DNA from: an uncultured Phycisphaerales bacterium | GTDB taxonomy: Bacteria; Planctomycetota; Phycisphaerae; Tepidisphaerales; Tepidisphaeraceae | DNA length: 64,000 bases | NCBI GenBank assembly: GCA_963730225.1 | Contig: CAVSQX010000001.1 | Coordinates: 997,805 to 1,061,804, forward strand | Reading direction: 5' to 3' | Part shown: positions 31,406 through 56,396 of the stretch, one piece after another | How positions within the stretch are numbered: the stretch's first letter is position 1 | Layout: the number at the start of each line of letters is the position of its first letter | The notes under the pieces: model-generated | What the model was told of the DNA's origin: nothing | What the model saw: the letters and a program-made list of their open reading frames with translations, nothing else | Databases searched by the model: none | Position numbers and translations under genes: made by a program

Positions 31406-33642
31406 TCAGGACCGCCTGACCATGGCCGGCGGCGGCGGAGGCGCGTCGCCATTCTTGTCGCCCAGCGATTCCATGATCTGCTTGGTCATGCGGTCCGCGA
31501 GTTCCTTCAGCGATGCCATCTCGGGATTGTCGACCGGCGTGAAGCCGCTCTTTTCCGCAACCAGCAGGCTGATGAGAAGTCCCATCATTCCGGTGCCGGC
31601 ATTGCCGGCGGTGAGACCAGCATCTCCATTGGTCGCGCCGGCGGCGCCGGTGATGAAAACCCGCTCGGGAACGAGCGGCTGGCTCGCCTTGGAGAGATTC
31701 TCGGCGACTTTCGCCAAGGCGTACAGGCGCGGATCGCCGAAGCTGGTGATGCTGCGCAGCAGAACGGTGGCGTCGGCCAGACCGACTTGCAGAGCGCGGG
31801 TGGATTCACCGCGGCCGGCGAGAACGCGCGATTGGCTGTCGGCTTGGGCAATCACCACCGTCTGCTCGGCCTGCCGGCGCGAGCGGGCCAATTCGGCCTC
31901 GGGAACGACCACGGTCTGTTCCGCCTGTTTGCGCGAGCGGGCCAGATCGGCGTCGCCTTGATTCTCGGCGATGCGAATCTGCACCTGCGAATTGGTCAGC
32001 TCCGCCTGTTTGGCGGCGATGGCCTGAGCTTCGTTGAGCGAGCGGAGCCTTTCGGCGGCGGCGCGCTGGCGGTCGTAGGTTTCCAACTGCTCGATGCTGA
32101 GCTGTCGGGTGCGAAGCTGTTCGAGCAGCGTTTCGATTTTCCCGCTGCCTTCGGCGGTGTCGGGCTTGCCGATCAGCACGTCGACGCATTCGATGTCGAA
32201 CTCGCGGAAGCGCTTTTGCAACTCGGCGCGCGATTCGACCTGAATTTCATCCCGGCGCTGGAGAAGCTCGAGCATGGTTTTTTTGTGGGCCACATCGCGG
32301 AAGTAAGCGCTGAGCATGGGATCGAGCGTCTGGGTGATCAGCCGCTTCACGTCGCCGAAACGCTGAATGACGTTCGGGGCGAGTTGGTAGTCGATGTGAA
32401 CGACAATGCTCAGCGGCAGCAACGGCTCGTAGGCATCCTTGGTAACCAGATCGATGGATTTGAGGCTCTCATCGTAATGATGGCTCTCGCTCTTTCCGGT
32501 GATCCAGTGGAGGACGAAATTGGTGGTCGGTACGAGAATCAGCTTGCCGGCGTAAGTGTTGAACGGATATTTGCCGGGACCCAGCGCCTTTCCCAAACAC
32601 CGCGATCGCCGCGCGCAACGCGCTCGCCGTGGCGAAAGGCTTCGCCGGAGACATCGGCGCCCAGCGGGCCGTAGTAGCTGACGACCACGCCGACGTAGCC
32701 GATGGGAACAAGCGTCTTGGCGATGATTTCGATGGTGGCAAACCAGCGGTTGATGAAGTACGTACCGTCGGTCAGCGGAACATATTGTCGGCCGCGGCGG
32801 CCGCCGGCGCGGAGGAAGGCTTCGGGATCCTGGTAGTTGTTGTGATAATTTTCGCTGGCGGCGTCGTTGCCGACGGCGGGCGCGATGATTTCACCGGGAG
32901 CGAGGCTCGGGCCGTCGTGAATGGTGACGATGCCGATGCTGTCGATGTCGATCGGCCGGCCGGGAGTCAGCGGATCTTCGGTTCGCACCGGCGCACCGAT
33001 GACCACGGGATCGAAGCCGTTGATGTCGCGGAGTTCTTTCTGCCAACCGACGATCGCTTCCAGTTCCTGCTTGCCCTGCATCTGGAGGCGATAGACGCGA
33101 TCTTCCGTGATGACGACGAAAAGCGCGAGATTGATGGCGTAGACGCCTTCACGGAGGATGGCGCGTTGCCGCCCGCGTTGGCCGGCGGGGCCAGGATTCT
33201 TGCCCTGGCCGAGGAACGCGCGGGAATCCTGAAAGTTGTTGCACTCGACGAATCGGCCCAGCGTCTGGCTCGGCGAGAGCGGCTCGCCGTCGCGGGCATA
33301 GACGTAACCGATTTTTCCCTGCCCTATCGTCACCAGCGGCGCTTTGTGAATTCGATACTGTATTGGCCAGAGGAACCGGTGGATGCCGCCGCGGAGAAGA
33401 TCGGACTGATATCCAGCTTCACCGTTGACGGCAACGATGCGCCCGTTGCCGATCGAACCGCTGCCGGACCAAAGCTTCTCGACGACGCCGACCATGTTGT
33501 TGGGGATGGATCGCAGTCCCAGAAGGATCCAGAGCAGGATCGGAGCGAATACGACAATCAAAACTCCCCAGACAACGGCATCGGGAAGACCGGTGGGATT
33601 GACGCCCAGAAACGAAGCGAAAATTGCGTGCGTGCCCGTCAT
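31406..33642 (-). CDS. Flotillin/SPFH (band-7) family protein, split by an apparent frameshift near 32596-32640
   Basis: N-terminal part (32539..33642) has the membrane anchor plus an SPFH domain. C-terminal part (31406..32596) has the flotillin coiled-coil with EA/QA repeats (AERLRSLNEAQAIAAKQAELT...). The two parts are in different frames with a 58-nt overlap. Confidence 0.75.
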
Positions 33643-33685
33643 GTCAGCCTCCGAGGAAGGGACGTGGAACGGAAACTGCGCCGGA

Positions 33686-34801
33686 TTATAGCGGGATCAA
33701 AGAGCCAAGGCGAAAAAAGGGGAACGACGAATGAGGTACTTCGTAGATCATTCGGGAATTTGCGCTGATCCGATTTTCCGCCTTGGGCAGGCGAAGTTCG
33801 GACCGCGGCGGAGCGGTGGAGGCGCGGACAATCAGATCTTCGGGGACTCGAATTTCGGTTCCCTGATGGGCCCGTGGAGAAAGCAGGCCGTTGAGAAGAA
33901 GATCCGCGCCGATTCGGCCCATCTCGCGGCCGGAGACGGCGACGGCCGTCAGCGGGGGAGCAAGCAAGGCAACGGGGAAAACATCATTGAAACAGATCAG
34001 GCTGAAGTCGGCGGGAATGCGCAGATTCATCGCGTCGGCCGCGCCAACCAGCATTACGGCGATGTGATGATCGTAAGTGATGACGGCGGTGGCGTTGTCT
34101 TCGATGACGGCGCTGCGGAGAAAATCGGTGGCGGAGGAAAATGGCGTGTCGTGGCCCGCCACCAGCCGCATGGAGCGCTTGCGGACGCCGGCCAGAAGCG
34201 TCTCGTAACGGTCGGTGACGCTGTAGTGGCTGAAATAGGTGGCGCGGGCGTTGGCGTAGGCGATGCGCTTGTGGCCAAGCTGTTGAAGATGTTCGATGGC
34301 TCGGTTGGCGCCCATCACATCGTCGGCCAACACGTAGGCGACGGGGTTGCCGACTCGCTCGTTGACGCAAACATAGGGAACACGGCGGCGGTCGAGTTCC
34401 TTGACGGTTTCGGACTTGGGGGCCTGCATCAGGATCGCGCCATCGAAACGCCAGAAGGGAAGAGCGCGCTCCAGATCGCTGATGGCGCTGAGCTCGAAGA
34501 AGACATCGTATCCGCCGGCGTGCAGAACTTCGGCCAAACCTTCGATCAGCGATTCGTTAATTCCTTCGGCGACGTGCGTTTGCGGGGAAGCAAAAAGGCC
34601 GACGATGCGCGTGCTGCGGCGATTGAGATTGCGGGCGGCCAGATCGGGGACGTAGCCGAGCTTGCGGGCGGTGTCGAGAATTTTTTCGCGGACCGCCTCG
34701 CTGGCGGAGAATTTTTGCTTGCCGTTGAGAACGCGGCTGACCGTGGCGGGGGTTACGCCACAGAGCTTGGCCACGTCGGTGATCGTCGGACGGTTCCCCA
34801 T
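33686..34801 (-). CDS. LacI-family transcriptional regulator
   Basis: Start at ATG 34801 gives the canonical HTH MGNRPTITDVAKLCGVTPATVSRVLNG, followed by a periplasmic-binding-protein-like sugar-binding core. The ORF in the track extends 13 codons further to 34840. Confidence 0.85.
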   Translation of the reverse strand: MGNRPTITDVAKLCGVTPATVSRVLNGKQKFSASEAVREKILDTARKLGYVPDLAARNLNRRSTRIVGLFASPQTHVAEGINESLIEGLAEVLHAGGYDVFFELSAISDLERALPFWRFDGAILMQAPKSETVKELDRRRVPYVCVNERVGNPVAYVLADDVMGANRAIEHLQQLGHKRIAYANARATYFSHYSVTDRYETLLAGVRKRSMRLVAGHDTPFSSATDFLRSAVIEDNATAVITYDHHIAVMLVGAADAMNLRIPADFSLICFNDVFPVALLAPPLTAVAVSGREMGRIGADLLLNGLLSPRAHQGTEIRVPEDLIVRASTAPPRSELRLPKAENRISANSRMIYEVPHSSFPFFRLGSLIPL

Positions 34802-34882
34802 GGGGGGAAGTATATCATGACTGGGGTCGAAACCATTCATGGGAAAAGCCAGCCCGCCCGGCCCGGTGGGCCGGCATAAACG

Positions 34883-36670
34883 TCAGGGGATCGATACCTC
34901 GGCCCGTGCGCCGCTGTGTGTGAGATCGACGGAATCGGTTTTGGTTTTGTCGGTGGTGATGGCGTAGGCGCCGAAGAATCCGCGAAAATGGGCCTGGCCC
35001 TGGGAATCTGTGGTGGTTGTGACATCGGTTTGCCATTGATGATGGACGAGATCGATGTACATCTGGCCATGGGGCCGCAGCGTCCAGTCGTCGGCGTAGA
35101 GCGCTCCCTGAGGCCGCCAATGCCGCTTGGACCAGAAACCCCAGAGCGTGATTCCTTTCACACTGGGCTCCGAAAATACAGCGATGAGATAATCGCGCAG
35201 GTAATCCGCCTGGAGTTGTCGGTCCGTCAGATCGAGACTCACTTCCGTCGATTCGATGGGCAAACCCAACTCGCTGAAATGATCGAGCACGTGAATAATC
35301 TGCGCCGGCGCGGGCAGATCGGTGCCGAAATGGGATTGAACGCCGATGCCGCCCAGCGGCGCGCCGTTTTTCTGGAGATACTGGATGGTGCTGTAGTACG
35401 CGTCGCGGTGACTGTTGACCTCGCCCCCCTCGACGATGCCGTAATCGTTGATGAATAGCGCGGAAGTGGGATCAGACTGGTGAGCGAGATTGAACCACTC
35501 GAGCATGATGCTACGGCCGCCCAGCGCGTCGACCAGATCATGATTGGCGTAAACTTCATTGACCACATCCCACTGAAAACACTGGCCGCGGAAGTGGGTC
35601 ATCATGAGCGTGATGTGATCGTCGATGCGGCGGCGCAGCTCGGGCGGATCGTTGGCGAACTGCTGGAGTTGCCTGGGCGACCAGTGCCAACTGGGCCAAA
35701 CCAAGTTGTGCCCGCGCACGGCGATGTGATGCGCCCGCAGCCAATCCATCGCCTGATCCACCTGCGGCGGAATGCCGTCCCAGGTGGCGTACCACTTCAT
35801 GTCGTTCTCGAACGTGGCCTGGTTAAAAAGCTCGGCGACGGTCTTTTGGTATTGAATATCATCGGGTGAATCTCCCAACAGATCGGCGGCGACAACACAC
35901 GTGCCCCAACCGAAGGCGTGGCGCTGAAGCACGGCGTGGATCGGGGCTCCGATCGTCGGTTTACCGGACGAATCGGTCACCTGGATGGTGAAATCGCCTT
36001 TGCGGATTTGCTCGATCCGAGCCAACGCCTGGGCACGCCAAGGGGCATTGGGATCATGCCCGACGTAGTCCTTGCTCGTGCGCGGCAGCGTTTCCAGCTT
36101 GGCATCGGGCCCGAGGTCGAGCAGTTCGATGCCGCCGATTTCGACGGTCTGACGATCAAATCCTTCGAAAAACGCGATCTGGCCCTGTCCGGTAGGAACA
36201 GCGCGGCGGGCGCAGAACGGAAGAAAACATTCCTTCCACTGCCCGCCAGCGCTGACGCGGAGTTCGGCCATTGGATCGGAATTACCGGCGCCGAAAATGA
36301 ATCGCGTGAAACCCTGAGCGGTCGCTGATTCGTCGCAGCGCAGGAAAAAATGCGCGAGAAGCACATCGTTGGCGGCGACGGCGCCGGTGGTCGCGGAAAT
36401 CAATTCGCTGTTCGACTCGGCCGTCGCACCGGAATCAGTGGAGATTTTCATCGCTTGCGTGAAGCTCTTACCATCGACCGACACCGGTGCAACGTGGCAG
36501 AGATTCGCTTGCGAGCCTGTCACGTGAAGGGCGTTGAGAACATCGGCGCCGAGCAGAGACTTTCCCGACGGGACAGGGTCCGCGGCAAAGGCGAAGGAAG
36601 CTATACCGCAGACCAGCGCCGCGGCCAGAGTTCCACGCTGCCGCCACTGGGGTTTGGATCGGCGGAGCAT
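34883..36670 (-). CDS. Glycoside hydrolase family 10 endo-1,4-beta-xylanase with an N-terminal carbohydrate-binding-like domain
   Basis: Signal peptide. The GH10 blocks WDVVNEV (acid/base glutamate) and IESTEVS (nucleophile glutamate) and WGFWS are present. The N-terminal about 200 aa are CBM4/9-like. Confidence 0.85.
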   Translation of the reverse strand: MLRRSKPQWRQRGTLAAALVCGIASFAFAADPVPSGKSLLGADVLNALHVTGSQANLCHVAPVSVDGKSFTQAMKISTDSGATAESNSELISATTGAVAANDVLLAHFFLRCDESATAQGFTRFIFGAGNSDPMAELRVSAGGQWKECFLPFCARRAVPTGQGQIAFFEGFDRQTVEIGGIELLDLGPDAKLETLPRTSKDYVGHDPNAPWRAQALARIEQIRKGDFTIQVTDSSGKPTIGAPIHAVLQRHAFGWGTCVVAADLLGDSPDDIQYQKTVAELFNQATFENDMKWYATWDGIPPQVDQAMDWLRAHHIAVRGHNLVWPSWHWSPRQLQQFANDPPELRRRIDDHITLMMTHFRGQCFQWDVVNEVYANHDLVDALGGRSIMLEWFNLAHQSDPTSALFINDYGIVEGGEVNSHRDAYYSTIQYLQKNGAPLGGIGVQSHFGTDLPAPAQIIHVLDHFSELGLPIESTEVSLDLTDRQLQADYLRDYLIAVFSEPSVKGITLWGFWSKRHWRPQGALYADDWTLRPHGQMYIDLVHHQWQTDVTTTTDSQGQAHFRGFFGAYAITTDKTKTDSVDLTHSGARAEVSIP

Positions 36671-36678
36671 AGTGGCGG

Positions 36679-37698
36679 TTAGTAGTTTGGGTTCACGTAG
36701 ATGTTCTTGCGCAGAAGGGAGGTCGTTGCATTAACGGTGGTCGTGCCGGTTTTAATCATCTTGAGCGTAAAGCTCTCAACATGGCCATCGACCATCAGCA
36801 CGTTACACACTGTGTTATTCAAGTGACGAAAGCGAATGTTGTTGGGATTCGCGGAGGTATCGGTATTCCAATACTTGGCCGCGGGGCTAGCTGTCGCGCC
36901 GGCGGGAGTCATATCGATTTGATCATTCGGGCGCAGACCCGTGTTGGCGGGGAGTGAATAGTCATCGGTGAAATAGGTGGTTCCCGATCCATATGAGTTG
37001 CTGCCCGGGTAAAAAAGGCGCCAGCCATCCATGGATCCGGCAACAGGGTAAGTGTACCAAGGACCCCAACTGAGCGCGTCGGCGTCGGTGACACCGACTT
37101 GCGTGTTCGGGGCCAGCGAATCATCAAACACGATGCCGATTTCCGCGCTTCGCTTGATGTTGGATTGGTGATACGGGACCGGCCATCTGCCGGTAACGGC
37201 ATCTCGAACAACATTGTTGTCCAGAACCGGCATCAATCGCGGATTGCAAGCGTAATGGCCGATGGTTATCCATCCCTGGCCGGGCGCGTCAGGGCACAGA
37301 AAAGTCTGCCTGCTGATCTGCATCAGCACGTTGGCGTTGGCGACTTCGTTGTAGCTGTTCCCATTCTTCCCGTTCATCGTGTACTGGAGCAGATTGACCC
37401 AATTCGAAGCTAACACGGTATTGGGTTGATTGCTGGTTGATACGAAACCGGTTTGCGAATTGTAGTACCCGTCCCACACCCCAAACGGCAGGACGCCTTT
37501 GCTGTCGATGCAATAGATGGCCAGCATCTGACCAATGCTGTGCAAATTGGCCTGGCACTTCAGAGAATTGGACTGCTGGCGGGCTTTGTTTAGCGCGGGG
37601 AGGAGAATCGAGATCAGCAAAGCGATGATCCCAATGACAACCAGCAGTTCAACTAATGTAAAACCCGAGAAGCGAGAGGCGTTTTTGGCGCTCCGCAT
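36679..37698 (-). CDS. DUF1559 domain protein (prepilin-type N-terminal methylation motif, type II secretion pseudopilin-like)
   Basis: Start [40 protein letters not shown] is a class III signal peptide/prepilin motif. It lies 8 bp upstream of the GH10 start. Confidence 0.85.
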
Positions 37699-37761
37699 TG
37701 GTTTCTCCTGCATGTCCGCCAGCGGCTCGACGAGGGAAGCATTCCTCGCCGCCAGTTCCAA

Positions 37762-37775
37762 GGTAAACGTTTACC
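37762..37775. promoter_or_regulatory. Predicted LacI-family operator, a perfect 14-bp palindrome GGTAAACGTTTACC
   Basis: Perfect palindrome with a central CG. On the minus strand it sits 1 nt downstream of the TACGAT -10 element (37777..37782), which has TTGACC at -35 (37800..37805) with a 17-bp spacer. It is about 65 bp upstream of the DUF1559-GH10-LacI operon start. Confidence 0.6.
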
Positions 37776-37909
37776 TATCGTAACGGGTTGGGTCTACGTG
37801 GTCAAGAAGATTTCGCTCTTTTTTCAAGGTGCTCAGCCCAGGCTAGTTGGCTGTACCGACTGGGATATCTGGGGAGAATATGAAAACAAACATAAAAAGC
37901 GAATTTTTC

Positions 37910-37953
37910 TTGACGAGCCCCGACCAGCTGATATATTTGGGTAATCGTTTACC
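37910..37953 (+). promoter_or_regulatory. Sigma70-like promoter (TTGACG-16 bp-TATATT) followed directly by operator copy GGTAATCGTTTACC (37940..37953)
   Basis: -35 at 37910..37915 and -10 at 37932..37937. The operator starts 3 nt after the -10. Located about 115 bp upstream of the PEP-CTERM gene start (38067). Confidence 0.55.
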
Positions 37954-38066
37954 CATGGGCGTGGAGTGCTGATTCCAAGCTTGTGGGTTCGATCGGAGTG
38001 GACGCAGAAACTCACTTCAGCCGCAGAGTCAGCCGGTTGGCTGGCGGCAAACTTATGGAGGGTCGC

Positions 38067-39095
38067 ATGAATAGGTCACCTAGGCGGTTCGTAGCTCCAA
38101 TTTGCGCCGCGGCAATTGCCGGCGCTTTGAGCTATGGGCCCACTGTATTTGGTTCAACGGGCAATTTCTCCAGCCCGCTGACCAATGCATTTTTATCCGT
38201 TGACATTAACGGCGGGCCGCTCACCAGCGCGGTAACCCCCACCAACGGTTACAACGACAACACCAGCGCCGGCGCTTTTTCGGCCGACAATTTTGGTGTC
38301 GTATGGACGCCTTGGGGCGGAAACGCCTACGCCGGCGGTGATGGAACGCAGTTGCCGTCGAGCCAATCGCCGACCGTCGTTTCGGCATCGAGCATTTCGA
38401 AGACCTTTTCGATCAACGGCCCCCCCGTCACCGACAACACGTATTTTAATCCGCCGTTCCTGGGGCAAACGACGATCCAACCGGTAACGGCGACAATCAG
38501 CATCGACACGACGAACAACACATCGCAATATGCACAGGTGGGTGGCGTGGCTTCGATGAACTCGCGCGACCGCGGGACTCCAACCGGTGCAAACGGCTTG
38601 AACGACAGCGACATGTTCCGCGATCTGCTTTTCGCCGGCGGCAGCGGCAGCAACGTGCAGGGAACCAATTTCATTCAGGTTCTGTTCGGAGGATTGACCC
38701 CCGGACAGAGCTACGAAATTGCGATGTATTCGTACGATTCTTCCGGCGGCCACACCACCAACTGGACCGATGTGGCCCCCACTACTTCCGGTGGGCTGGA
38801 TGGATGGTGGGCGTCTTCGCCCGCGGGTAATAACACGTTCACGGCACCGACGGAACAGTCCATCACATGGACCTCAGGCACGACCCCCGCACCGGCGATC
38901 TTCGACGAAGTCGCTAACAGCAATGGCCTGGTCACGCTGTGGGCCTGGGGTGGCAATGGCGTTACTGGAAATCAAAGCTCCGACACCACGTATGTGAACG
39001 GTTTCCAGATTGCCGCCGTACCGGAGCCTGGTTCGATAGGCTTGCTCGCATTGTCTAGCATCGGGTTGATCGCTCGCCGACGTCGCAGGGAGTGA
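38067..39095 (+). CDS. PEP-CTERM sorting-domain surface protein
   Basis: Signal peptide MNRSPRRFVAPICAAAIAGALS. Ser/Thr/Gly/Asn-rich body. C-terminus AVPEPGSIGLLALSSIGLIARRRRRE is PEP-CTERM plus a transmembrane helix plus an arginine tail. Confidence 0.75.
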   Translation: MNRSPRRFVAPICAAAIAGALSYGPTVFGSTGNFSSPLTNAFLSVDINGGPLTSAVTPTNGYNDNTSAGAFSADNFGVVWTPWGGNAYAGGDGTQLPSSQSPTVVSASSISKTFSINGPPVTDNTYFNPPFLGQTTIQPVTATISIDTTNNTSQYAQVGGVASMNSRDRGTPTGANGLNDSDMFRDLLFAGGSGSNVQGTNFIQVLFGGLTPGQSYEIAMYSYDSSGGHTTNWTDVAPTTSGGLDGWWASSPAGNNTFTAPTEQSITWTSGTTPAPAIFDEVANSNGLVTLWAWGGNGVTGNQSSDTTYVNGFQIAAVPEPGSIGLLALSSIGLIARRRRRE

Positions 39096-39295
39096 TGGCA
39101 GTTGAAAAAGAGCGGCCGGCGCAGTTCTGGGGAGTTGCGCCGTGCCGTGATACATTGTTGCCAACCGCCGATCGCATCTGATCGGCGGTTGGCAACTTTT
39201 TTGCTGCCGCGTCTCAGCATCCGCTTGCACTCGCACAGATCAAGCAAGAAAACAGTAGCGGTTGGGCACGAAAGGGGCTAAGATATCCTGTCGTA

Positions 39296-39309
39296 GGTAA
39301 ACGATTACC
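39296..39309. promoter_or_regulatory. Predicted LacI-family operator copy GGTAAACGATTACC
   Basis: Same 14-mer as the other three sites. It lies 18 bp upstream of the GH52 start codon (GTG 39328). Confidence 0.5.
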
Positions 39310-39327
39310 CATTCCTGGAGATGGCCC

Positions 39328-41583
39328 GTGTCGGCAGTACCGCCGCCCTTTGGCGGGAATATAAACTTCAACGCCCAGCATTCGCCGATGGGGGCGTTCA
39401 TGAGCTTCACCTGCGGGCACTTCGGCAGCGGCGGTGGCATCGGCATTGAAATCGGCAGGCCCGCGACCCAGAGCATCTACGTTGGCGTGAAGAAGGGAAC
39501 CCGGCGGTCCAATCAACCGATCCGCTGCCTGCCATTTGCCAAATCCGGCGCGGCTGGGTCCGGAGCAAATTTCCAGGTTGAAAACTCCACCGATTCACCC
39601 GGCAACGCCGGCGCATCCGTGGAATTCTATTCGCCAGATCAGATTACCCGGCGATACGGCTGGGCGAGCGACCGTTGGGATACGGAGGACTTCTCTTTCA
39701 CCATATACACGCCCTTTGGTCCGATTCCCGAGCCCGGCACCGATTCCGATACATTGCGCGAATCGCTGCTTCCCGCCGTGGTCGTCTGTCTCGAGGTGGA
39801 CAATCGCTCCGGTTCTGAACCGAAGACGGCCGTTTTTGGAATCGACTTCGCTGAGGCCGGCGCCCGGCTGCTTCAAGGCGGCGACGCCTGGGCCGACGGG
39901 CCGGCAAAACTGGGCTTCGCCTGGCGGCGAAGCATGGGCGTGCTGGGCATGGTCGAAGGCTCCGCCGCCGGAAGCGGAGGCGGTTTACTGGCGCTCCAGC
40001 GCTGGTCGCTTGCCGAGGCGCTGATCGATGTGAATCCGGCGCACGGATTGGGAACCAGCGCGGGGCTGGCCCTGGAAGTGGCCGCCGGAAGCAAGCGAAC
40101 GATGGTGTTGGCCATCGGCGCTCATTTGGATGGAGTCGTCACCACCCGCCTGGAAGGCCGATATTACTACACTCGATTCTACAGCAGCCTCGATGAAGTG
40201 CTTGCCGCCGCCTTGCAGCAGTCGGCCGATCTGCGCCTGCGCTCGGCTTTGCTGGACGCCGAACTTCTTTCCAGCGGATTGTCTACCGATCAGCAGTTTC
40301 TCATCGCCCACGCTACCCGCAGCTATTACGGAAACACTCAGCTTCTGGACGTCGGCGGCGAACCGTTCTGGATCGTCAACGAGGGGGAATACTGCATGAT
40401 GAACACGCTGGATCTTTCGGTCGATCAGGTGTTCTGGGAGTTGCAGCACAATCCGTGGGTGGTTCGCAATGTGTTGACGAACTTCGTCCGGCACTACGCC
40501 TATCACGATCAGGTGAAAACGCGCGGTGGTCAGGTGCTGCCGGGCGGAATTTCCTTCGCACATGACATGGGCGTCAACAACGGGTTTTCCGCTGCCGGCC
40601 AGAGCAGCTACGAGCTGGCCAATCTAACCGGCTGCTTCTCGTATATGACGCAGGAAGAGCTGTGCAACTGGATTCTGATGGCGGTCTGTTATGTAGCTCG
40701 GACCGGCGACACGCGCTGGCTGCTGGAGAACGGGCACGTCATCGCCGCCTGCGCCGACAGCCTGCGCTGCCGCGCGAACTTGCGAACCGGCATGATGGCC
40801 CACGACAGCACCCGCTGCGGAACGGGCCAGGAAATCACCACCTACGATTCTCTGGATGAATCGCTTGGCCAGGCGCGGGCCAATACATATTTGGCGACCA
40901 AGTGCTGGGCGACATGGATTGGACTGGATTTGCTGGCACGCCTGCGCAGTGCCACCGGAGCGGAGGATTCCTCCGATACGGGGCCGAACCTCGCCGACGA
41001 TCTGGCGGATTTCCTGGTGCGCTCGGCTACGGCCGAAGGAACGCTTCCCGCGGTGCTGGAGAAAGATAATCCGGGATTTCATTCGCGGATTCTGCCCGTG
41101 GTCGAAGCCCTGATCTATCCGGCTTATTGGCTGGGTTGCTTGCAGCAGCACGCTCCGGCGCAGATTACCGAGCCGCTGCGCCGGCGATGGTCCGACCCGT
41201 TGATCGACCTGCTGCGCCGCCACACGCTGGCGCTGCTGACGGACCCGGGTCGTCCCAATCTTTTCCCCGATGGAGGGATCAAGCTTTCCAGCAGTTCGAA
41301 CAATTCGTGGATGAGCAAGATCGCCATGTTTCAATTCGTCTGCCGCGCCGTTCTGCGGCTGACTGACGCCGAGCCGCGCATCGCTGATATCTTTGCGGCG
41401 GCCGACGCGGCCCACGTTTCATGGCAAACGCTTGGATGCGGTCATTGGGCGTGCAGCGACCAATTCGTCAGCGGACGAGCCAAGGGAAGCCGGTATTATC
41501 CAAGAGTCATCACCGCAGCGCTGTGGCTGGACGAAAAATCCGCCGCGCGGTTGAAGCCGGCGGCGGAGCGGGTACCTCAGTAA
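39328..41583 (+). CDS. Glycoside hydrolase family 52 beta-xylosidase (cytoplasmic)
   Basis: No signal peptide. Colinear with Geobacillus XynB2-type GH52. Matching blocks include NFNAQHSPMGAFMSFT, RSYYGNTQLLDVGGEPFWIVNEGEYCMMNTLDLSVDQVFWEL, GISFAHDMGV, ITTYDSLDESLGQAR, FPDGGIKLSSSSNNSWMSKI and GSRYYPRVITAALWLDE. Confidence 0.85.
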   Translation: MSAVPPPFGGNINFNAQHSPMGAFMSFTCGHFGSGGGIGIEIGRPATQSIYVGVKKGTRRSNQPIRCLPFAKSGAAGSGANFQVENSTDSPGNAGASVEFYSPDQITRRYGWASDRWDTEDFSFTIYTPFGPIPEPGTDSDTLRESLLPAVVVCLEVDNRSGSEPKTAVFGIDFAEAGARLLQGGDAWADGPAKLGFAWRRSMGVLGMVEGSAAGSGGGLLALQRWSLAEALIDVNPAHGLGTSAGLALEVAAGSKRTMVLAIGAHLDGVVTTRLEGRYYYTRFYSSLDEVLAAALQQSADLRLRSALLDAELLSSGLSTDQQFLIAHATRSYYGNTQLLDVGGEPFWIVNEGEYCMMNTLDLSVDQVFWELQHNPWVVRNVLTNFVRHYAYHDQVKTRGGQVLPGGISFAHDMGVNNGFSAAGQSSYELANLTGCFSYMTQEELCNWILMAVCYVARTGDTRWLLENGHVIAACADSLRCRANLRTGMMAHDSTRCGTGQEITTYDSLDESLGQARANTYLATKCWATWIGLDLLARLRSATGAEDSSDTGPNLADDLADFLVRSATAEGTLPAVLEKDNPGFHSRILPVVEALIYPAYWLGCLQQHAPAQITEPLRRRWSDPLIDLLRRHTLALLTDPGRPNLFPDGGIKLSSSSNNSWMSKIAMFQFVCRAVLRLTDAEPRIADIFAAADAAHVSWQTLGCGHWACSDQFVSGRAKGSRYYPRVITAALWLDEKSAARLKPAAERVPQ

Positions 41584-41606
41584 CAAACGCAATTCATCGA
41601 CGGTTT

Positions 41607-41970
41607 TCAGTGGCGTCGGCGCCGCAGCAGGGCCAGACCGCCCAGGCCCAGCAGAGAGAGGCTGGCCGGCTCCGGCACGGCCACGCTTTCGCTGGCCGAT
41701 GCCTGCACCGCGCCGAGCGAAGCAATCTGCGGTCCCTGGGTATTGAAGGCGTTGTCAATCAGCGTGTAATCGTCGCCGTTGACGACGCCGTCGTAGTTAA
41801 AATCGCCGTTGCGCCAGCCGGTTAGGTTGTTGTTGAAACCGTTATCGATAAGCGTGTAATCGCTGCCGTTCACAACCCCGTCGAGATTGGCGTCGCCGAA
41901 GTACGTGTATTTCACGAGCACGTCGCCGTCCGCCGTGCTTTGGCCTTCGAAGGTGCTGGTCAGCGCGGCG
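41607..41970 (-). repeat. Paralogous C-terminal anchoring cassette (copy 1 of 2): YNGG-W-GT...VLVKYTYFGDANLDGVVNGSDYTLIDNGFNN-LTGW-NGDFNYDGVVNGDDYTLIDNAFNTQG + PEP-CTERM
   Basis: About 120 codons that are nearly identical in protein, and about 85% identical in nucleotides, to 48403..48770. Confidence 0.7.
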
Positions 41971-43679
41971 CCGGAACCGTTGTCGTTCAGTTCAACGCCG
42001 ATAGCGGTGTTCTTGGTCCCCGCCGCCAACGAGGAGTACATTCCACCGGTACCGTTCCAGGTTCCGCCGTTATAGCCCTGCTTGATCTGGTCGGTGATGT
42101 TCGCGAGTTCCGTCGCTCCACCGCCGGTGATGATCATGTCGTTGTTGCCCAAATCCAGCTTGCCGGTCCAGGCACCCAACGATCCGGAGAAGGTCAGCGT
42201 CGGAGTGACAAGAAAGGTTTGATTGCCCGGCGTCGACGGAGCGAAGACGACGGTGCCGCTGGAACCGACGTTCAACGCTGCGACGTTCTGAACAATCTTC
42301 CCGGTTCCGGCATTGGCGACGAAATTGAGGATGCCGCCCGGATAAATCGCCGAGCCGGTCGCCAGCGATCCATTGACGACGTTGAGCGTTCCGCCGGGAC
42401 TCAGAACAGTCGCGCTGTTGTCGGTCGAAGGAGCCGAAAGGGTCACACTGCCGGACCCGGAAACGGTGAGGTTTCCCGTGCCGCTGATGCCACCGCTGAG
42501 GGTCAGGGAAGCGCCGGTGGAAGCGCTCAAGGTAACACCCGCGACGACTGCAACCGGAGCGGTAATCGTGTGACTGCCGGTCATCGCACTGATCAAGGGG
42601 TTTACCGTGCCGCTGGGGTCTCCAGTGTCGTTGATCGTGAGTATTCCGCCGGCCGGATTGGTTCCCTGGGCGATGATGTAAGTGGAGGTGTTGTTGAAGG
42701 TGATTTGGCCAACCGTCTCATTCCCGTCGAGCGTAACGGTACCGGGCGCATTGACGGCGGTGAGGCTGGAGCCGAAAGTGGCCTGATCCGCCGGGCCGTT
42801 TGGAATTGCCGAGCCCGACCAGTCACTAGTGGAATTCCAGGTTCCGCCGCTGGTCGGCAGCCAAGTGGCCTCGATCACCGACGGCGCCGGATAAACGGCG
42901 AAGAGCAGGCTTCGCGCTCCGCCACCGACCAGCGTGCGCTCTTCGGGACTGTAGGCTTCTTGTTCATCGCCGATCTGATTCTTGGCGTGATAGGTTCCGC
43001 CGCCAGGTGTTGTTTGAGAATTCGACCGGTAGGCATACAGCGTGGTGTTGCTGGAGGGTGTGTCCCAGATTTCAAAATCATAGGTGACGCCCGCAGTGAG
43101 CGCGACCTGATCGGTGCCGGAGAAATCCAGTTCTGTCACCTCATAGTTTCCGCTGCCGTTGTAAGTGAAGGAAAGGTTTCCGGTTGGGTTAGCCGGTGTA
43201 CCGCCACCCAGCAAGTCGGGACTTGTTTGCGCGACCGGGTTGGTCCCGTCGCCGAGGGTAAATCCACCGGCCGTTTCGTAGGAAGAGTCGGCCGCGGCGA
43301 GGGTGAACAGATGAACGGTGAAACCATTCATGGTTGCCGGAGGTGTGGATGGACCACCGGAGTTCACGAACGAGATTGCCCCAAGGTTGAAGCCGGTAGT
43401 CGGCGTGAAAGTCATGGCCTCCACGAAACCCGGCGAGATGGTTTCAACGGTTTGCCCGGTATTGGGCGAACCCTGGGCTCCGCCGGTTCCGCTGGTGATG
43501 ATGGGATTGGTTCCGATGAGCGAGGGGATGGCGGTGGTTGCGCCGGGCCAATAGGTGGGCAAAGCGCCGGACGTGGCTCCGATCGGATTGATCGTGACGC
43601 CGGCTTGCACGGAAAAGCCCGTCAACGCTGACGTAACGCCGCACGAAACGGCCAATAGCAGTTTTTTCTTGCTTGACAT
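41607..43679 (-). CDS. Secreted repetitive surface protein with a C-terminal dockerin-type repeat pair and PEP-CTERM anchor
   Basis: Signal peptide MSSKKKLLLAVSCGVTSALTGFSV. Gly/Thr/Ser/Asn-rich beta-strand repeats. C-terminal DANLDGVVNGSDYTLIDNGF...DFNYDGVVNGDDYTLIDNAF (two dockerin-like Ca-binding loops), then VPEPASLSLLGLGGLALLRRRRH. Confidence 0.8.
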   Translation of the reverse strand: MSSKKKLLLAVSCGVTSALTGFSVQAGVTINPIGATSGALPTYWPGATTAIPSLIGTNPIITSGTGGAQGSPNTGQTVETISPGFVEAMTFTPTTGFNLGAISFVNSGGPSTPPATMNGFTVHLFTLAAADSSYETAGGFTLGDGTNPVAQTSPDLLGGGTPANPTGNLSFTYNGSGNYEVTELDFSGTDQVALTAGVTYDFEIWDTPSSNTTLYAYRSNSQTTPGGGTYHAKNQIGDEQEAYSPEERTLVGGGARSLLFAVYPAPSVIEATWLPTSGGTWNSTSDWSGSAIPNGPADQATFGSSLTAVNAPGTVTLDGNETVGQITFNNTSTYIIAQGTNPAGGILTINDTGDPSGTVNPLISAMTGSHTITAPVAVVAGVTLSASTGASLTLSGGISGTGNLTVSGSGSVTLSAPSTDNSATVLSPGGTLNVVNGSLATGSAIYPGGILNFVANAGTGKIVQNVAALNVGSSGTVVFAPSTPGNQTFLVTPTLTFSGSLGAWTGKLDLGNNDMIITGGGATELANITDQIKQGYNGGTWNGTGGMYSSLAAGTKNTAIGVELNDNGSGAALTSTFEGQSTADGDVLVKYTYFGDANLDGVVNGSDYTLIDNGFNNNLTGWRNGDFNYDGVVNGDDYTLIDNAFNTQGPQIASLGAVQASASESVAVPEPASLSLLGLGGLALLRRRRH

Positions 43680-43710
43680 GTAGACCCTCCAGCGCCAGAT
43701 TACTAAGCCA

Positions 43711-43753
43711 GGTAAACGATTACCTACAATACTTCGGGTTATGGGCGTGTCAA
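43711..43753 (-). promoter_or_regulatory. Sigma70-like promoter (TTGACA-16 bp-TATTGT, minus strand) followed directly by operator copy GGTAATCGTTTACC (43711..43724)
   Basis: Read on the minus strand the sequence is TTGACAcgcccataacccgaagTATTGTaGGTAATCGTTTACC. The operator ends about 30 bp upstream of the ATG (43679) of the dockerin/PEP-CTERM gene. The site is also in the divergent region upstream of the ABC transporter operon (43834). Confidence 0.6.
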
Positions 43754-43833
43754 GAAAAATATTGCGCTTTTAACGTAAACCCAGGCGCTTTGCATGCCGG
43801 CGGCAAGATGTTACGTTCCGCTGGCCGGAGCCG

Positions 43834-45239
43834 ATGAAATTGCAACCCAGAACACCTCGACCGCTCTGGGGCGCCCTTGGCGTCATCTCGCCGGGGGCTT
43901 GGATCATTCTGATCCTCGCCGTGGTTTCCACGATTCTCGTGGCTTGCCGAACTTACCAACGCAAAGCCGGACTGGAGATGTGGGCGTTTGCCCAGGTTCA
44001 TGTCGCCATGTATGTGCCGCTGGTTCAGCAATGGAACCAAACACATGAAACCCAGGTGACGTTGATACCGCTGGGACACGACGTGCTCGCACAGCGGATG
44101 ATTTCCGGCTTCTTTTCCAAAACGCCTCTGGCGGACTTGATCGAGGTCGAGCGGGGAACCATCGGCGCGGTGTTCGGTGGGCCGCTGGACCAGGTTGGAT
44201 TTTGCGACTTGACCGACATTCTTCACCGCGATGGTGTGTACGAGCAGCTGAATGAGCCGTCCTTCAGTCCATGGACTTCCCGCGGACACATCTTCGGCCT
44301 GCCGCACGATGTGCATCCGGTCATGCTGGCGTATCGCGCTGATCTGGTCGAGCAGGCGGGCATCGATGTTTCGAAGATCGAAACGTGGGACGATTTCGTG
44401 CGGGCGTTTTCGCCGCTGATGAAGGATCTCGACAGTGAGGGCCATCCCAAGCATTACCCGTTGAATATCTGGACGACCGCCATCGGGCAGATCGAAGCGC
44501 TGATGCTTCAGGCGGGAGGAAACTATTTCGACGAAGACGGCCGGCCGATTATGGATTCTCCACAGAACGCTCGGGTGATTTCCACGGTGGTGTCGTGGGT
44601 TACCGGTCCGGGCCGAATCGCCGCCGACGCGCCGGAGTTCACCGCCATGGGGAATCAGCTGAAGTTGCAGGGATATGTCGTTGCATCGCTGGCTCCGGAT
44701 TGGTTGCTGGCGACGTGGAAACAAGATCTGGGCGGATTGAGCGGCAAAATGAAGCTGATGCCGCTGCCGGCGTGGGATCGCGGCGGCCGGCGCACCAGCG
44801 TGTGGGGCGGGACCATGCTCGGCATTCCCAAGGCCAGCCCGAATTTCGATAAGGCGTGGAATTTCGCCAAGACCCTTTATCTTTCACCCCAGATAGCTCA
44901 AAGGCTTTACGAGCGGGCCGGAATCGTGACACCCGTCAAGCGATTGTGGGAGCAGCCTTTCTTCGACGTGCCTTCCCCCTTTTTCTGCGGCCAGGCGCCG
45001 GACGGATGTACATCAACCTCGCCCGCCAGGTCCCGCCGCGAACCAGCTCGCCGTTTTTTAATCTCGCCGAAGATCGGCTCCAGGATGCCGTTCTGGCCCT
45101 GCGCGATTATGCCGACGCCCATCATGTCTATGACCCCAAAGAATTGATGCCCGAAGCACGTCGACTCCTGGCCATCGCGCAGGAACAGGTACGGCGGCAA
45201 ATGGACCAGAATCTTTTCATCAAGGGGCAAAAGTCGTGA
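43834..45239 (+). CDS. ABC transporter substrate-binding protein (carbohydrate, solute-binding family 1), with an apparent frameshift near 44995-45005
   Basis: N-terminal anchor helix then a family 1 solute-binding fold (ORF 43834..45147). The C-terminal 80 aa (GRMYINLARQVPP...LLAIAQEQVRRQMDQNLF) continue in frame +1 (ORF 44856..45239). The junction is FFCGQAP / GRMYIN. Confidence 0.75.
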
Positions 45240-46123
45240 TGCGAAGCCGGCAACAGACTTTGGCCCCCTACTTCTTTCTGGCGCCCTTCGTGCTGATTTT
45301 CTGCACGTTTACGGCGTATCCACTTTTTCAGTCGATTCTCCTTTCGATGCGGCAAACCTACGGGCCGGGGCTGGCGCGATTTGTCGGATTCTACAATTAC
45401 CGTTTTCTGTTCTCCGATCCGCTCTTCTGGACGGCCGTTTACAATACAACTGTTTTTGCGATGGGCTCGCTCTTCATTCAACTGCCCTGCTCGCTGGCGC
45501 TGGCGGTTTTGCTGAATCGAAAAAACCTGCCGGGGCGTTCCGTCTTTCGGCTGATCTTTTTCTCGCCATCGCTGGTGGGGCTGATTTTCGTCGGGATGCT
45601 CTTCACCCTGATCTTCGACAAAAACACCGGGCTGATGAATGTGTCGCTGCATCGGCTGGTTGGATGGAATCTGGAATTCCCCTGGCTTGAGCGATACGTG
45701 CGGCCGGCGCTGATCCTCGCCGCGTTCTGGATGTACGTGGGATTCAACATGGTTTATTTCCTGGCTGCACTTCAAAGCGTCGAGCCGGAGTTGGTCGAAG
45801 CGGCCGCGGTGGACGGGGCCGGGCCTTGGCGAAGATTTTTTCACGTCACGCTGCCAGCAATTCGGCCCGTCGGGTTGTTCGTTGTGCTGCTGTCGTTGCT
45901 GGGTAGCTTTCAGCTTTTCGAGTTGCCGTACGTCCTGTTCTTCAACAGCGGGAATGAAAACGGACCGGACAATCAGGCGCTCACGGTCGTAATGTATCTG
46001 TACCAGAATGGATTTGAGCGCGGCGATCTGGGTTACGCCAGCGCGGTCGGATGGGTGCTGGCTCTGCTACTGATTCTGTTGGCGGTCGGCTATCGGATGC
46101 TGGCACGGGCGGAGGAGCGATGA
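45236..46123 (+). CDS. Carbohydrate ABC transporter permease (MalF/UgpA-like)
   Basis: Six transmembrane helices and an EAA-like loop (ALQSVEPELVEAAAVDGAGPWRRFFHVTLP). Overlaps its neighbours by 4 nt. Confidence 0.85.
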   Translation: MMRSRQQTLAPYFFLAPFVLIFCTFTAYPLFQSILLSMRQTYGPGLARFVGFYNYRFLFSDPLFWTAVYNTTVFAMGSLFIQLPCSLALAVLLNRKNLPGRSVFRLIFFSPSLVGLIFVGMLFTLIFDKNTGLMNVSLHRLVGWNLEFPWLERYVRPALILAAFWMYVGFNMVYFLAALQSVEPELVEAAAVDGAGPWRRFFHVTLPAIRPVGLFVVLLSLLGSFQLFELPYVLFFNSGNENGPDNQALTVVMYLYQNGFERGDLGYASAVGWVLALLLILLAVGYRMLARAEER

Positions 46124-46956
46124 AACGGGCCGCGGTTTATCTCGTGCTGATTTTTCTATCGGTTTTGACGCTGGTGCCCTTTGCGTATCTGGCCAGCGCC
46201 TCACTGAAGCCGGCGGCGATTATGTTCGACTCGCTCTTTCTGCCAACGGGCAAGGGATTTTTGGGAATCGCCTGGAGCCAGTTGACGCTTCAGCACTTCC
46301 TCGATGCGATTCATCAGCCGACGTTTACGCAGAACGTCATCAACTCATTTTTCTACGCCTCGGTCACCAGCGTGCTGGCTACGCTCAGCTGCGCCATGGG
46401 CGGATACGCACTGGCGATGTTCCGATTCCGCGGCAGAACCATTCTCACCAACCTGGTGCTCGCGGCGTTGGTGATTCCGGCGACGTTGCTGCTGGCGCCA
46501 ACCTACCAATTGATCTACCGATTCGGGCTGATCGATACCATGACGGGATTGATTTTCCCCGGCCTTGCCCCGGCATTTGGAATTTTTCTGTTCCGCCAAA
46601 GCATGATCAACACCTTTCCGCGCGATCTGATGGAAGCCGCCCGCATCGACGGCTGCGGCGAGCTGCGAATGTTCTTCTCCATCGCCCTTCCGATCGCCCG
46701 GCCGATGATCAGCGCGTTTCTGCTCATCACCTTCCTCGCCTGCTGGAACGATTTCATTCATCCGCAGATCATCCTCCAATCGCTGGAGCGATTTCCGCTT
46801 TCGGTGGCGATTGCCCAGATGAAGGATTACTACTCGCAGGATTACGGCCTGCTGATGGCCGGCACTTTGATCTCGATCCTGCCGGTGATGGTGTTGTTCC
46901 TGCTGCTTCAGCGCGAGTTCATCTCGGGACTGACGTCCGGCGCGGTGAAGGGATAA
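46120..46956 (+). CDS. Carbohydrate ABC transporter permease (MalG/UgpE-like)
   Basis: Start MKRAAVYLVLIFLSVL overlaps the previous stop (ATGA). EAA motif MEAARIDGCGELRMFFSIALP. Confidence 0.85.
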   Translation: MKRAAVYLVLIFLSVLTLVPFAYLASASLKPAAIMFDSLFLPTGKGFLGIAWSQLTLQHFLDAIHQPTFTQNVINSFFYASVTSVLATLSCAMGGYALAMFRFRGRTILTNLVLAALVIPATLLLAPTYQLIYRFGLIDTMTGLIFPGLAPAFGIFLFRQSMINTFPRDLMEAARIDGCGELRMFFSIALPIARPMISAFLLITFLACWNDFIHPQIILQSLERFPLSVAIAQMKDYYSQDYGLLMAGTLISILPVMVLFLLLQREFISGLTSGAVKG

Positions 46957-46961
46957 CTCGA

Positions 46962-48329
46962 TCAGGGCGGATCGATCAGGCCGACGACGGCACAGTTGTA
47001 TCGCTGCGACCTTGGCATCGTGCCGCGGAACCAGAGCAACGCGATGTTGTCGTCGGGCCAGACCACGGTGATCGGGCGAAGATTATCGACCTCGGAGTTG
47101 GCCGTAATGGCCTTCCACTTCCAGGTTGCCCCGTCGTCGGCGGTGACGCCTTTGTAAATCTCGTGGCACGCGGTCGCAACGCCGGTTCGCGGATCGATGG
47201 GCGTGGAAACGTACACGATATTCGGATCATCGCTTCGCAGCGCCGCCAGGCCGGTATAATCCTGCTCGCTGGTCCAGAGGCGAGGTCCGGCTTTGGCCAG
47301 CGGGTGCACGTTCCAAGTCTTGCCGTCGAAGCGGGCGTACAGAAATCGGTGGTCGTTGAAGTTCGAATTGTCGGGAATGTCGTTGGCGCGAGCGGAAATG
47401 ATGGCGAATGGCCGGTCCTGTTTGTCGACTCGCAGATCGACGATCCAGGCGTGCGTCAACACGTCGCCGCCGAACACGCTGCTGGCGGCGAAAACTCGTG
47501 TGAGCTCGGTCTGCGGATGGCCTGGACTGTGAAAGACGTCGTCGTCCACTATCGTGCCGTCCGAGCGGTGCAGCTTGCCGTCCTGAAGATAGCCGTGATA
47601 AACATTGTTGTTGAAATCGCGCGGATGGTGTTCGGTGGTGATGAAGTCGATGCGATCGACGCCATTCGACGCGTACTTGGTATATCCGTTCACATAACCA
47701 AGCCGCGGAATCGTCAGCAGCTTGCCGGAGTATGCCCAGCTATCGCCGTGATCGGTGGAAATGAGAATCGAGGGATCCTGATTCACCGCGCGGCAAAAGT
47801 CATACGTGCGATTCTCGGCGGAAAGATAAAACAGATTGGAATAGGTGACGTGCTCCAACTGGCCCTGATACACGTGCAGATAAGGAGTCCAATCAAACTT
47901 CTGCTCATCGCCCCACTGGCTGGCGTCGTGCGGGTTCGTTGAGATGCGCCAGTACGTGAAACTCTCGTGGTTGTGCAGCGTGTAAACGGCCAGATACCTT
48001 CCGTCCGGACGGATCAGAAAAGCGGGCGCGTTGTGATCGTCCTGCGGCTGGAAATTGTGATGCAAAACGAAATGTTGGGTCGAGCCATCGGCAAGATGAT
48101 AACAGTCTAAATCCACATCGCCGGTGCGCTCGTTTCCGTCGACGCCCTCGGAATCGGCGATCGAGCCGATGAGCAGCGTCTTGTTGGTCGGATCAAAAAC
48201 CGCGCACGGATCCTGAAACCAGCACCACGCACCGTTGTCATTAATTACAACCGGATGAACCGCGCAGCCCCCGATCGCAAATATCCCCGCGACGCAGATC
48301 GCGCCGCACAGCCGTGAAAAAGTTCGCAT
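46962..48329 (-). CDS. BNR/Asp-box repeat glycosidase (sialidase-like beta-propeller), lipoprotein
   Basis: Lipobox FAIGGCAV. Asp-box motifs STDHGDSW and TADDGATW. It is the last gene downstream of the giant surface-protein gene. Confidence 0.65.
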   Translation of the reverse strand: MRTFSRLCGAICVAGIFAIGGCAVHPVVINDNGAWCWFQDPCAVFDPTNKTLLIGSIADSEGVDGNERTGDVDLDCYHLADGSTQHFVLHHNFQPQDDHNAPAFLIRPDGRYLAVYTLHNHESFTYWRISTNPHDASQWGDEQKFDWTPYLHVYQGQLEHVTYSNLFYLSAENRTYDFCRAVNQDPSILISTDHGDSWAYSGKLLTIPRLGYVNGYTKYASNGVDRIDFITTEHHPRDFNNNVYHGYLQDGKLHRSDGTIVDDDVFHSPGHPQTELTRVFAASSVFGGDVLTHAWIVDLRVDKQDRPFAIISARANDIPDNSNFNDHRFLYARFDGKTWNVHPLAKAGPRLWTSEQDYTGLAALRSDDPNIVYVSTPIDPRTGVATACHEIYKGVTADDGATWKWKAITANSEVDNLRPITVVWPDDNIALLWFRGTMPRSQRYNCAVVGLIDPP

Positions 48330-48402
48330 TCAAAAACTCCGCCGTCTCGATACGCCGGGACAATAGCAACCGAGAAGCGGATTGCAAGATGAAAGCAGCG
48401 CG

Positions 48403-48770
48403 TCAACTTCTACGCCGTCGTCGCCAAAGAACGGCCGCGGCAACCGCGGCGACGCCCAAATTTCCCGGCTCCGGCACGGCTGCCAAGGATCCGCCGGCAA
48501 TCTGCGACGTTGGGATCGCCACCATCTCCATTGGCTCCGCCGCCAGCGATGCCCCCTGCGTATTGAACGCATTGTCAATGAGCGTGTAGTCGTCGCCGTT
48601 GACGACGCCGTCGTAATTGAAGTCTCCGTTGTGCCACCCCGTCAGCGTGTTGTTAAAGCCGTTATCGATCAGCGTGTAGTCGCTGCCATTCACAACGCCA
48701 TCCAAATTGGCATCACCAAAATAAGTGTACTTCACCAACACGTCGGTGCTGGTGACGCTCTGACCATCGA
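48403..48770 (-). repeat. Paralogous C-terminal anchoring cassette (copy 2 of 2)
   Basis: Dockerin pair plus PEP-CTERM module shared with the 41607..43679 gene. The two dockerin pairs differ at only two residues (NNNLTGWRNG versus NNTLTGWHNG). Confidence 0.7.
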
Positions 48771-54700: not shown

Positions 54701-55075
54701 GGTATTGAGATTGACTGCGCCGGGAAGATTGAAATAAACATCGTCTCCGCTTCCGGGCAGGGCGTTGGAATCGTTATCGAAATCGTCGGAGGAAGACCAG
54801 TTCACATTGGCCGGCCCGCCGGTGGTGTTCCAAACCGTGTCGTGATCCCCGGTCCAGAAAAATGATGCCGCTGCCGCCGAGCCCGCCATCGCCCCACTGG
54901 CCGACAACGCTGCCGCCAGCAGAGCCGTTCCCGACCACTGCTTTCCGCCATGCCGATGATGCCGCGCGTAGCCGATTCTCCGCCGAATCATGGAACCCTC
55001 CATCTGGAAATGAAACCTGCCGCACTCCAGCAATCGCTCAGACCTGTCCACGGTACAACGTAGATCGCCCTCCAC
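48403..55075 (-). CDS. Giant (about 2,200 aa) cell-surface protein with PATR (autotransporter-associated beta-strand) repeats, a C-terminal dockerin pair and PEP-CTERM anchor; split by an apparent frameshift near 51690-51720
   Basis: N-terminal part 51356..55075 has a signal peptide (MIRRRIGYARHHRHGGKQWSGTALLAAALSASGAMA; likely start about 54991) and repeats of LTLSGANSYSGSTSLSG type. C-terminal part 48403..51696 continues the same repeats (GGTLFLSGANTYSGNVAVPNGTLSV...) in another frame. The upstream tail after ...SLNVAGAG is Arg-rich junk. Confidence 0.8.
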
Positions 55076-56294: not shown

Positions 56295-56317
56295 GATTTG
56301 TTAGCATAACACATTCG

Positions 56318-56356
56318 TGTCGCAAAACAGAGAAGTTTTGGCGCAAAATGACGTGG
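56318..56356. promoter_or_regulatory. About 39-bp conserved element (copy B), tgtcgcaaaacagagaagttttggcgcaaaatgacgtgg
   Basis: Inverted copy of 55082..55121. It lies in the divergent region between xylR and the DUF1559-GH5 operon, about 45 bp upstream of the DUF1559 start. Confidence 0.55.
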
Positions 56357-56396
56357 CATACTGGTTGGTCGACCGCGAAAATCCAGTTCCTGTCGC

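Follow-up and report, generated by a model that had tools for sequence, protein, structure and literature searches.

Operators of the LacI family are well described. In the RegPrecise survey of this family, central-CG even palindromes were found for 1173 of 1303 transcription factors, the operator being recognized by its even symmetry, a length of 16-22 bp and CG at its centre; 72% of the factors are autoregulated, most sites precede a start codon by 30-140 bp, and Planctomycetes are nowhere named in the survey text (Ravcheev et al. 2014, PMC4052901). For xylan use, the LacI-type XylR of Caulobacter crescentus and Xanthomonas spp., which binds the xyl-box TGGTAGCGCTAACA, controls xylan-degradation and xylose genes and is relieved by xylose (PMC10380989). 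XynR of Caldicellulosiruptor/Anaerocellum bescii is a LacI-family xylan regulator known from comparative genomics (PMC8579813, PMC12285236), and its regulon, whose genes are induced on xylan, was validated by transcriptomics (PMC8579813). Here we describe a xylan locus in a 64-kb stretch of DNA (hereafter the window) from a soil planctomycete of the class Phycisphaerae, in which four copies of the palindromic motif GGTAAWCGWTTACC are very probably the operators of a LacI-family repressor encoded in the same locus, at 33686-34840.

In many respects the locus resembles the generic LacI/GalR regulons (GalR with galOE in E. coli, CcpA with cre, and those of RegPrecise): all combine a two-domain LacI protein with an even central-CG palindrome, operators some 20-120 nt from start codons, a local regulon of catabolic and transporter genes, and autoregulation, which in the window is presumed. 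The core of the E. coli gal OE operator GTGTAAACGATTCCAC, namely GTAAACGATT, is identical to the core of the window operator, whereas the outer half-site bases are GG..CC in the window and TG..CA in gal OE (PMC2887952). In contrast to these model regulons, the host belongs to the phylum Planctomycetota, and the DUF1559 pilin-like and PEP-CTERM proteins among the targets have no counterpart there. XylR is analogous in function and alike in being a LacI-family repressor with a 14-bp central-CG palindrome and GGTA...TACC-like arms; however, in the window neither a xylose isomerase gene nor a kinase gene is seen under the motif. An identity of GGTAAWCGWTTACC with the xyl-box was considered and rejected, because the window motif has one extra base per half-site (GGTAAA/CGTTTACC versus GGTAG/CGCTACC-like) and the two cannot be superposed. 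XynR, which was compared by description, controls secreted xylanases, cytoplasmic xylosidases and oligosaccharide ATP-binding cassette (ABC) transporters and is the closest functional analogue alongside XylR, but it comes from a thermophile of another phylum and acts as a multi-locus master regulator, whereas the window regulon appears local within the DNA examined.

Predicted operators and promoters of the xylan locus

A preliminary description of this DNA had claimed that the 14-mer occurs four times and nowhere else in the 64 kb. An exact-pattern search with GGTAAWCGWTTACC indeed returned exactly four matches (37762, 37940, 39296 and 43711) against none expected, and the motif is absent from all 100 dinucleotide-preserving shuffles. 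Allowing up to two mismatches adds a single match in the window, at 50947, within a coding region, and a position weight matrix (PWM) built from 43 sites detects no site beyond the four across the 64 kb. The four matches, designated O1 to O4 (Table 1), lie 18-113 nt 5' of start codons and have the even palindrome with central CG of the LacI/GalR-type operator that had been proposed. Profiles from Pfam and NCBIfam, from which the gene identities in Table 1 were taken, likewise agree with the earlier naming of the LacI, GH10, DUF1559, two PEP-CTERM, GH52 and ABC transporter genes.

Table 1. Predicted operators, promoters, terminator and genes of the xylan locus (window coordinates)
Feature	Position	Strand	Details
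LacI-family transcription factor, LacI helix-turn-helix (HTH) and Peripla_BP_3	33686..34840	-	Presumed repressor; last gene of the O1 operon
GH10 endo-xylanase, 595 aa	34883..36670	-	GH10 domain at residues 253-521
DUF1559/H-X9-DG protein, prepilin-type N-terminus	36679..37698	-	First gene of the operon; pilin-like fold
Operator O1, GGTAAACGTTTACC	37762..37775		Perfect palindrome; 64 nt 5' of DUF1559 gene start; PWM 28.6 bits
Promoter of DUF1559-GH10-LacI operon, TTGACC-17-TACGAT	37777..37805	-	-10 end to O1, 1 nt
Promoter of PEP-CTERM (CBM-like) gene, TTGACG-16-TATATT, extended TG	37910..37937	+	-10 end to O2, 2 nt
Operator O2, GGTAATCGTTTACC	37940..37953		113 nt 5' of PEP-CTERM gene ATG; PWM 27.1 bits
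PEP-CTERM-anchored protein, function unknown	38067..39095	+	Predicted beta-jelly-roll fold, like carbohydrate-binding modules (CBMs)
Intrinsic terminator, 18-bp stem then TTTTTT	39157..39196	+	Separates PEP-CTERM gene from GH52
Weak candidate GH52 promoter, TTGGGC-16-TATCCT	39262..39289	+	7/12 matches; -10 end to O3, 6 nt
Operator O3, GGTAAACGATTACC	39296..39309		18 nt 5' of GH52 GTG start; 3' of strong terminator; PWM 26.4 bits
GH52 beta-xylosidase	39328..41583	+	GH52 domain begins at open reading frame (ORF) residue 27
Dockerin type I and PEP-CTERM surface protein, 690 aa	41607..43679	-	
Operator O4, GGTAAACGATTACC	43711..43724		32 nt 5' of dockerin/PEP-CTERM gene; 110 nt 5' of divergent ABC substrate-binding gene; PWM 26.7 bits
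Promoter of dockerin/PEP-CTERM gene, TTGACA-16-TATTGT	43726..43753	-	-10 end to O4, 1 nt
Sugar ABC transporter	43834..46956	+	Substrate-binding protein 43834-45147; permeases 45236-46123 and 46051-46956

A scan for consensus sigma70 promoters covered positions 33000-48500; these 15.5 kb hold only four sigma70-like sites, a total not above chance, and three of the four abut operators. The preliminary description had put a near-consensus -10 directly before every copy of the palindrome. This is so at O1, O2 and O4, where the gap is 1-2 nt, but not at O3. At these three near-consensus promoters the operator also lies, as had been claimed, over the predicted transcription start: because the -10 ends 1-2 nt before it, the operator would extend from about -5 to +10, where repressors classically act by steric hindrance. 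When promoters were scored at each of 45 sites, taking the best sigma70-like match with its -10 ending no more than 8 nt before the 14-mer or 4 nt into it, a score of at least 9/12 was obtained beside 29 of them, compared with 27 of 4000 random positions. The layout that recurs in relatives is TTGACA-16/17-TAnnnT, followed by 1-2 nt and then by the operator, which indicates that Phycisphaerae use E. coli-like TTGACA-16/17-TAnnnT promoters with the operator over the start site. The offset seen at O3 is shared by the GH52 sites of two related loci (L002 and L003), where the -10 ends 6-7 nt before the operator. Looping between O1 and O2, which are 178 bp apart, was also considered on the ground of helical phasing and was dropped, since paired sites in relatives are spaced by 21, 136, 142, 160, 312, 362 and 528 bp and show no common phase.

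Related loci

Conservation of this arrangement was assessed by searching the LacI protein against one genome per species, which yielded 21 loci with orthologues at 59-81% identity, the source genome not being among them. All are from metagenome-assembled genomes recorded as Phycisphaerae, Tepidisphaeraceae or other Planctomycetota, except for one titled Bacillota. Their common synteny is DUF1559-GH10-(BNR_4)-LacI-(substrate-binding protein-permease-permease)-GH52, together with PEP-CTERM genes. In the 308 kb of these loci the motif was observed 4 times without mismatch, 21 times with at most one and 41 times with at most two, where Markov simulations lead one to expect 0, 0.05 and 1.3, respectively. 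At least one strong site is present in 19 of the 21 loci; in the other two the LacI match starts at locus positions 162 and 3, and hardly any sequence, or none, is available 5' of it. Symmetrizing 43 sites gives the 20-bp even palindrome ttA-rGTAAwCGwTTACy-Taa, in which the central CG never varies (86/86). Thus, as in the surveyed LacI-family operators, the motif of the window and its orthologues is an even palindrome with a central CG that stands upstream of co-localized sugar genes and is conserved.

The sites in relatives stand upstream of orthologues of the same genes as in the window, namely DUF1559, GH10, both PEP-CTERM genes, GH52 and the substrate-binding protein, and also of LacI itself. 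The shared regulon that had been claimed for the window is supported in this way, as motif and layout are kept upstream of the same orthologues in 19 of the 21 loci, LacI included. An operator lies directly 5' of the LacI orthologue in six loci (L001, L004, L005, L012, L018 and L019), and in four others (L007, L008, L009 and L015) it lies within the 3' end of the BNR_4 gene, some 107 bp ahead of LacI, pointing to an internal promoter under autoregulation. The substrate-binding protein orthologue has its own operator in L005 and L017, and the ABC genes are co-operonic with LacI in L002, L003, L006 and L014. Sites in relatives are also found beside further genes, hemicellulose-related ones among them: an AXE1+GDSL esterase, GH44, a GH42/35-like protein, a GH2 with malectin, an MFS_2 transporter, a xylose-isomerase-like TIM-barrel protein and additional PEP-CTERM proteins.

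Some features of the gene order vary among the loci. The BNR_4-family gene has its orthologues inside the GH10-LacI operon in L007, L008, L009 and L015 (around position 9849 / 3342), while that of the window (46962-48329, minus strand) lies outside the GH10-LacI operon and has no operator. At the orthologous position, L013 (3676-5789) and L016 (9989-12092) carry tandem LacI paralogues that are 54-65% identical to the window protein, and both copies in L016 appear frameshifted.

The LacI-family protein and the regulon model

The presumed repressor is a bona fide member of its family, as the preliminary description had stated. The start given there, 34801, should probably be moved to 34840, because four orthologues align with the N-terminal extension, which begins MNGFDPSH, from its residue 1 onward. 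The protein has a LacI HTH (PF00356, residues 19-66, E 1.3e-13) and a Peripla_BP_3 domain that is full-length over profile positions 1-167 (E 6e-24), and it aligns end to end with structure 4o5a (1.7e-31) and with the structures of CelR (5ysz), CcpA, RbsR, LacI and PurR. Its recognition helix VTPATVSRVLN (GVTPATVSRVLN) is conserved among orthologues. In LacI and PurR, a leucine of the hinge helix contacts the central CpG. The hinge LGYVPDLAARNL (VPDLAARNL) of the window protein can be aligned to those of 4o5a and 5ysz, and all orthologues retain it. None of the NCBIfam equivalogs comes near its cut-off, the best being RbsR with 136 bits against a cut-off of 382, and therefore the protein is an unnamed member of the family.

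From these observations we infer binding of the palindromes by the 33686-34840 protein, repression, and the identity of the inducer. Without inducer, a LacI dimer would bind each 16-20-bp palindrome, each HTH taking one half-site and the hinge helices lying at the central CG. The dimer at O1, O2 and O4, placed over about -5 to +10, would block RNA polymerase binding or open-complex formation, while at O3, where the promoter is weaker, it would cover about +1 to +14. The units repressed would be the DUF1559-GH10-LacI operon, through which the repressor would be negatively autoregulated, the PEP-CTERM CBM-like surface protein, the cytoplasmic GH52 beta-xylosidase, the dockerin/PEP-CTERM surface protein and, probably, the divergent oligosaccharide ABC transporter. 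A product of xylan breakdown inside the cell, either a xylo-oligosaccharide or xylose, would be expected to occupy the sugar-binding domain, so that the repressor leaves the operators. So conceived, the mechanism is an ordinary local LacI-type repression switch of the textbook kind.

Several observations weigh against this model. First, O3 has no convincing promoter. Second, no plus-strand promoter of acceptable score for the ABC operon was found over O4 by the promoter scan and site-wise scoring; the claim that the ABC transporter probably belongs to the regulon is thus supported by orthologues and synteny but not by promoter geometry, and on the former basis we regard its membership as probable. 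Third, the LacI gene of the window has no operator of its own, and neither an operator (in motif and PWM scans) nor a promoter was found in the gap of 42 nt that separates the GH10 stop from the LacI start. LacI could plausibly be transcribed together with GH10, and autoregulation in the window would then depend on read-through from GH10 across a GC-rich hairpin in that gap, CCGGCCC-ACC-GGGCCGG (34858-34874, minus strand), which is not followed by a T tract. This hairpin might modulate read-through into the LacI gene. Finally, the same operator stands before unrelated LacI subfamilies elsewhere, and the motif alone cannot name its regulator.

The last point comes from a scan of metagenomes with the composite TTGACA-N16/17-TANNNT-N1/2-GGTAAWCGWTTAC, which gave 49 matches in 46 loci. 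Eight of these precede DUF1559 or PEP-CTERM orthologues, and another four precede an MFS_2 transporter, a sugar-binding protein, a CE15-type glucuronoyl esterase and a GH127. A further 16 precede LacI-family genes whose products are 24-29% identical to the window protein and have the recognition helix VSIATVSRVxN or close variants, on contigs with a GC content of 0.36-0.62. The composite lies 2-60 nt 5' of such genes in L023, L026, L028-L031, L033, L036, L038, L042, L052, L053, L055, L057 and L059. Judged from these sequence matches, the operator and its position after the -10 are widely used by LacI subfamilies in other taxa, and the motif is generic to the family. Since it is generic, assignment of the window sites to the adjacent regulator rests on co-localization and autoregulatory sites rather than on the motif sequence.

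One may therefore argue that the operators are genuine LacI-type sites that are bound by a LacI paralogue encoded elsewhere, perhaps one that regulates sugar genes more globally, whether or not the adjacent protein binds as well. That several subfamilies read this sequence is what the 24-29% identical proteins of other taxa suggest, and the tandem paralogues of L013 and L016 point the same way. Nevertheless, the related loci were collected solely by orthology to the window LacI protein, and 19 of the 21 carry the motif, which disfavours such a paralogue. In addition, a site stands before the LacI orthologue in at least ten loci (the six directly upstream and the four in the BNR_4 3' end), and the window has one LacI-family gene only, its other sugar regulator being AraC-type. 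We thus consider it improbable that a paralogue replaces or joins the adjacent protein.

It is also conceivable, and less probable still, that the LacI protein is an activator or a dual regulator at some sites. The only candidates would be O3 and the ABC side of O4, where the operator is not overlapped by a strong promoter: the O3 promoter has just 7/12 matches, and O4, over which no plus-strand promoter lies, is about 110 nt 5' of the substrate-binding gene. At O1, O2 and, on the minus strand, O4, however, the operator covers the start site, which does not allow activation, and most LacI-family regulators bind DNA without ligand (PMC4052901). Lastly, although the sites are self-complementary and lie at the extreme 5' end of predicted transcripts, the notion that the palindrome is a nucleic-acid hairpin, such as a stem-loop at the 5' end of the transcript, rather than a protein site is very unlikely and was rejected because, at its two variable position pairs, the half-sites vary independently (non-complementary in 20/55 at positions 1/14 and in 29/55 at positions 6/9, with no compensatory pattern). 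Moreover, the stem would be short and AT-rich, and a LacI-family operator would account for both the invariant central CG and the 20-bp symmetry.

DUF1559 and PEP-CTERM proteins and neighbouring genes

A literature search found no earlier comparative reconstruction of a transcription-factor regulon in Phycisphaerae, and the present one may be the first in this class. It defines a conserved xylan-utilization set consisting of GH10, GH52, the ABC transporter, DUF1559 and the PEP-CTERM CBM-like proteins, to which relatives add BNR_4, esterases and GH44. Its most useful outcome is an annotation by guilt by association that ties two large families of unknown function, DUF1559 and the PEP-CTERM CBM-like proteins, to xylan use. 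In addition, its promoters and operators could serve as a simple inducible pair in Planctomycetota genetics.

The DUF1559 gene starts with the ATG at 37698, in agreement with a 100%-identical database protein (P0107); homologues of its product carry PF07596/DUF1559, and the product has a prepilin N-terminus and an H-X9-DG C-terminus. The PEP-CTERM protein encoded at 38067-39095 has no Pfam domain besides its sorting signal and forms a small family with about 100 homologues, the few taxon-labelled ones being from Tepidisphaeraceae. Its AlphaFold model, which is confident, is similar to jelly-roll modules that bind carbohydrates, among them the xylan-binding CBM22. The GH52 enzyme is presumably cytoplasmic, as had been claimed, because its domain starts at residue 27, too early for a signal peptide to precede it.

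In the xylan-controlled operon the DUF1559 gene regularly comes first, and a second unit of similar order lies in the window. There, a second sugar regulator of XylR type, with a periplasmic-binding-protein sugar-binding domain and an AraC HTH (55152-56294, minus strand), is divergent from an operon of DUF1559 (56397-57398), GH5 (57395-58783) and an ORF of unknown function (58777-59721); the order of DUF1559 followed by a glycoside hydrolase thus recurs under a different regulator (55152-59721). Together, the place of DUF1559 at the head of the xylan operon and the DUF1559-GH5 unit provide a testable lead on DUF1559 function. Tentatively, the DUF1559 pilin-like and PEP-CTERM CBM-like proteins could be dedicated, substrate-specific parts of a planctomycetal apparatus for xylan capture or secretion, a possibility that we rate well below even. 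If this were true, the large family of DUF1559 paralogues would supply each polysaccharide with its own pilin-like adaptor, regulated together with the hydrolase for that polysaccharide, and the DUF1559-GH5 unit under the AraC-type regulator would be another example.

Between the xylan locus and this second unit lie two very large genes (48403-55075, minus strand) with autotransporter-type PATR repeats, one of them with a dockerin, whose ORFs as listed overlap by about 340 nt. The motif scan of the window found no operator upstream of them, and homologues flank the xylan loci of several relatives (L002, L007, L008 and L016).

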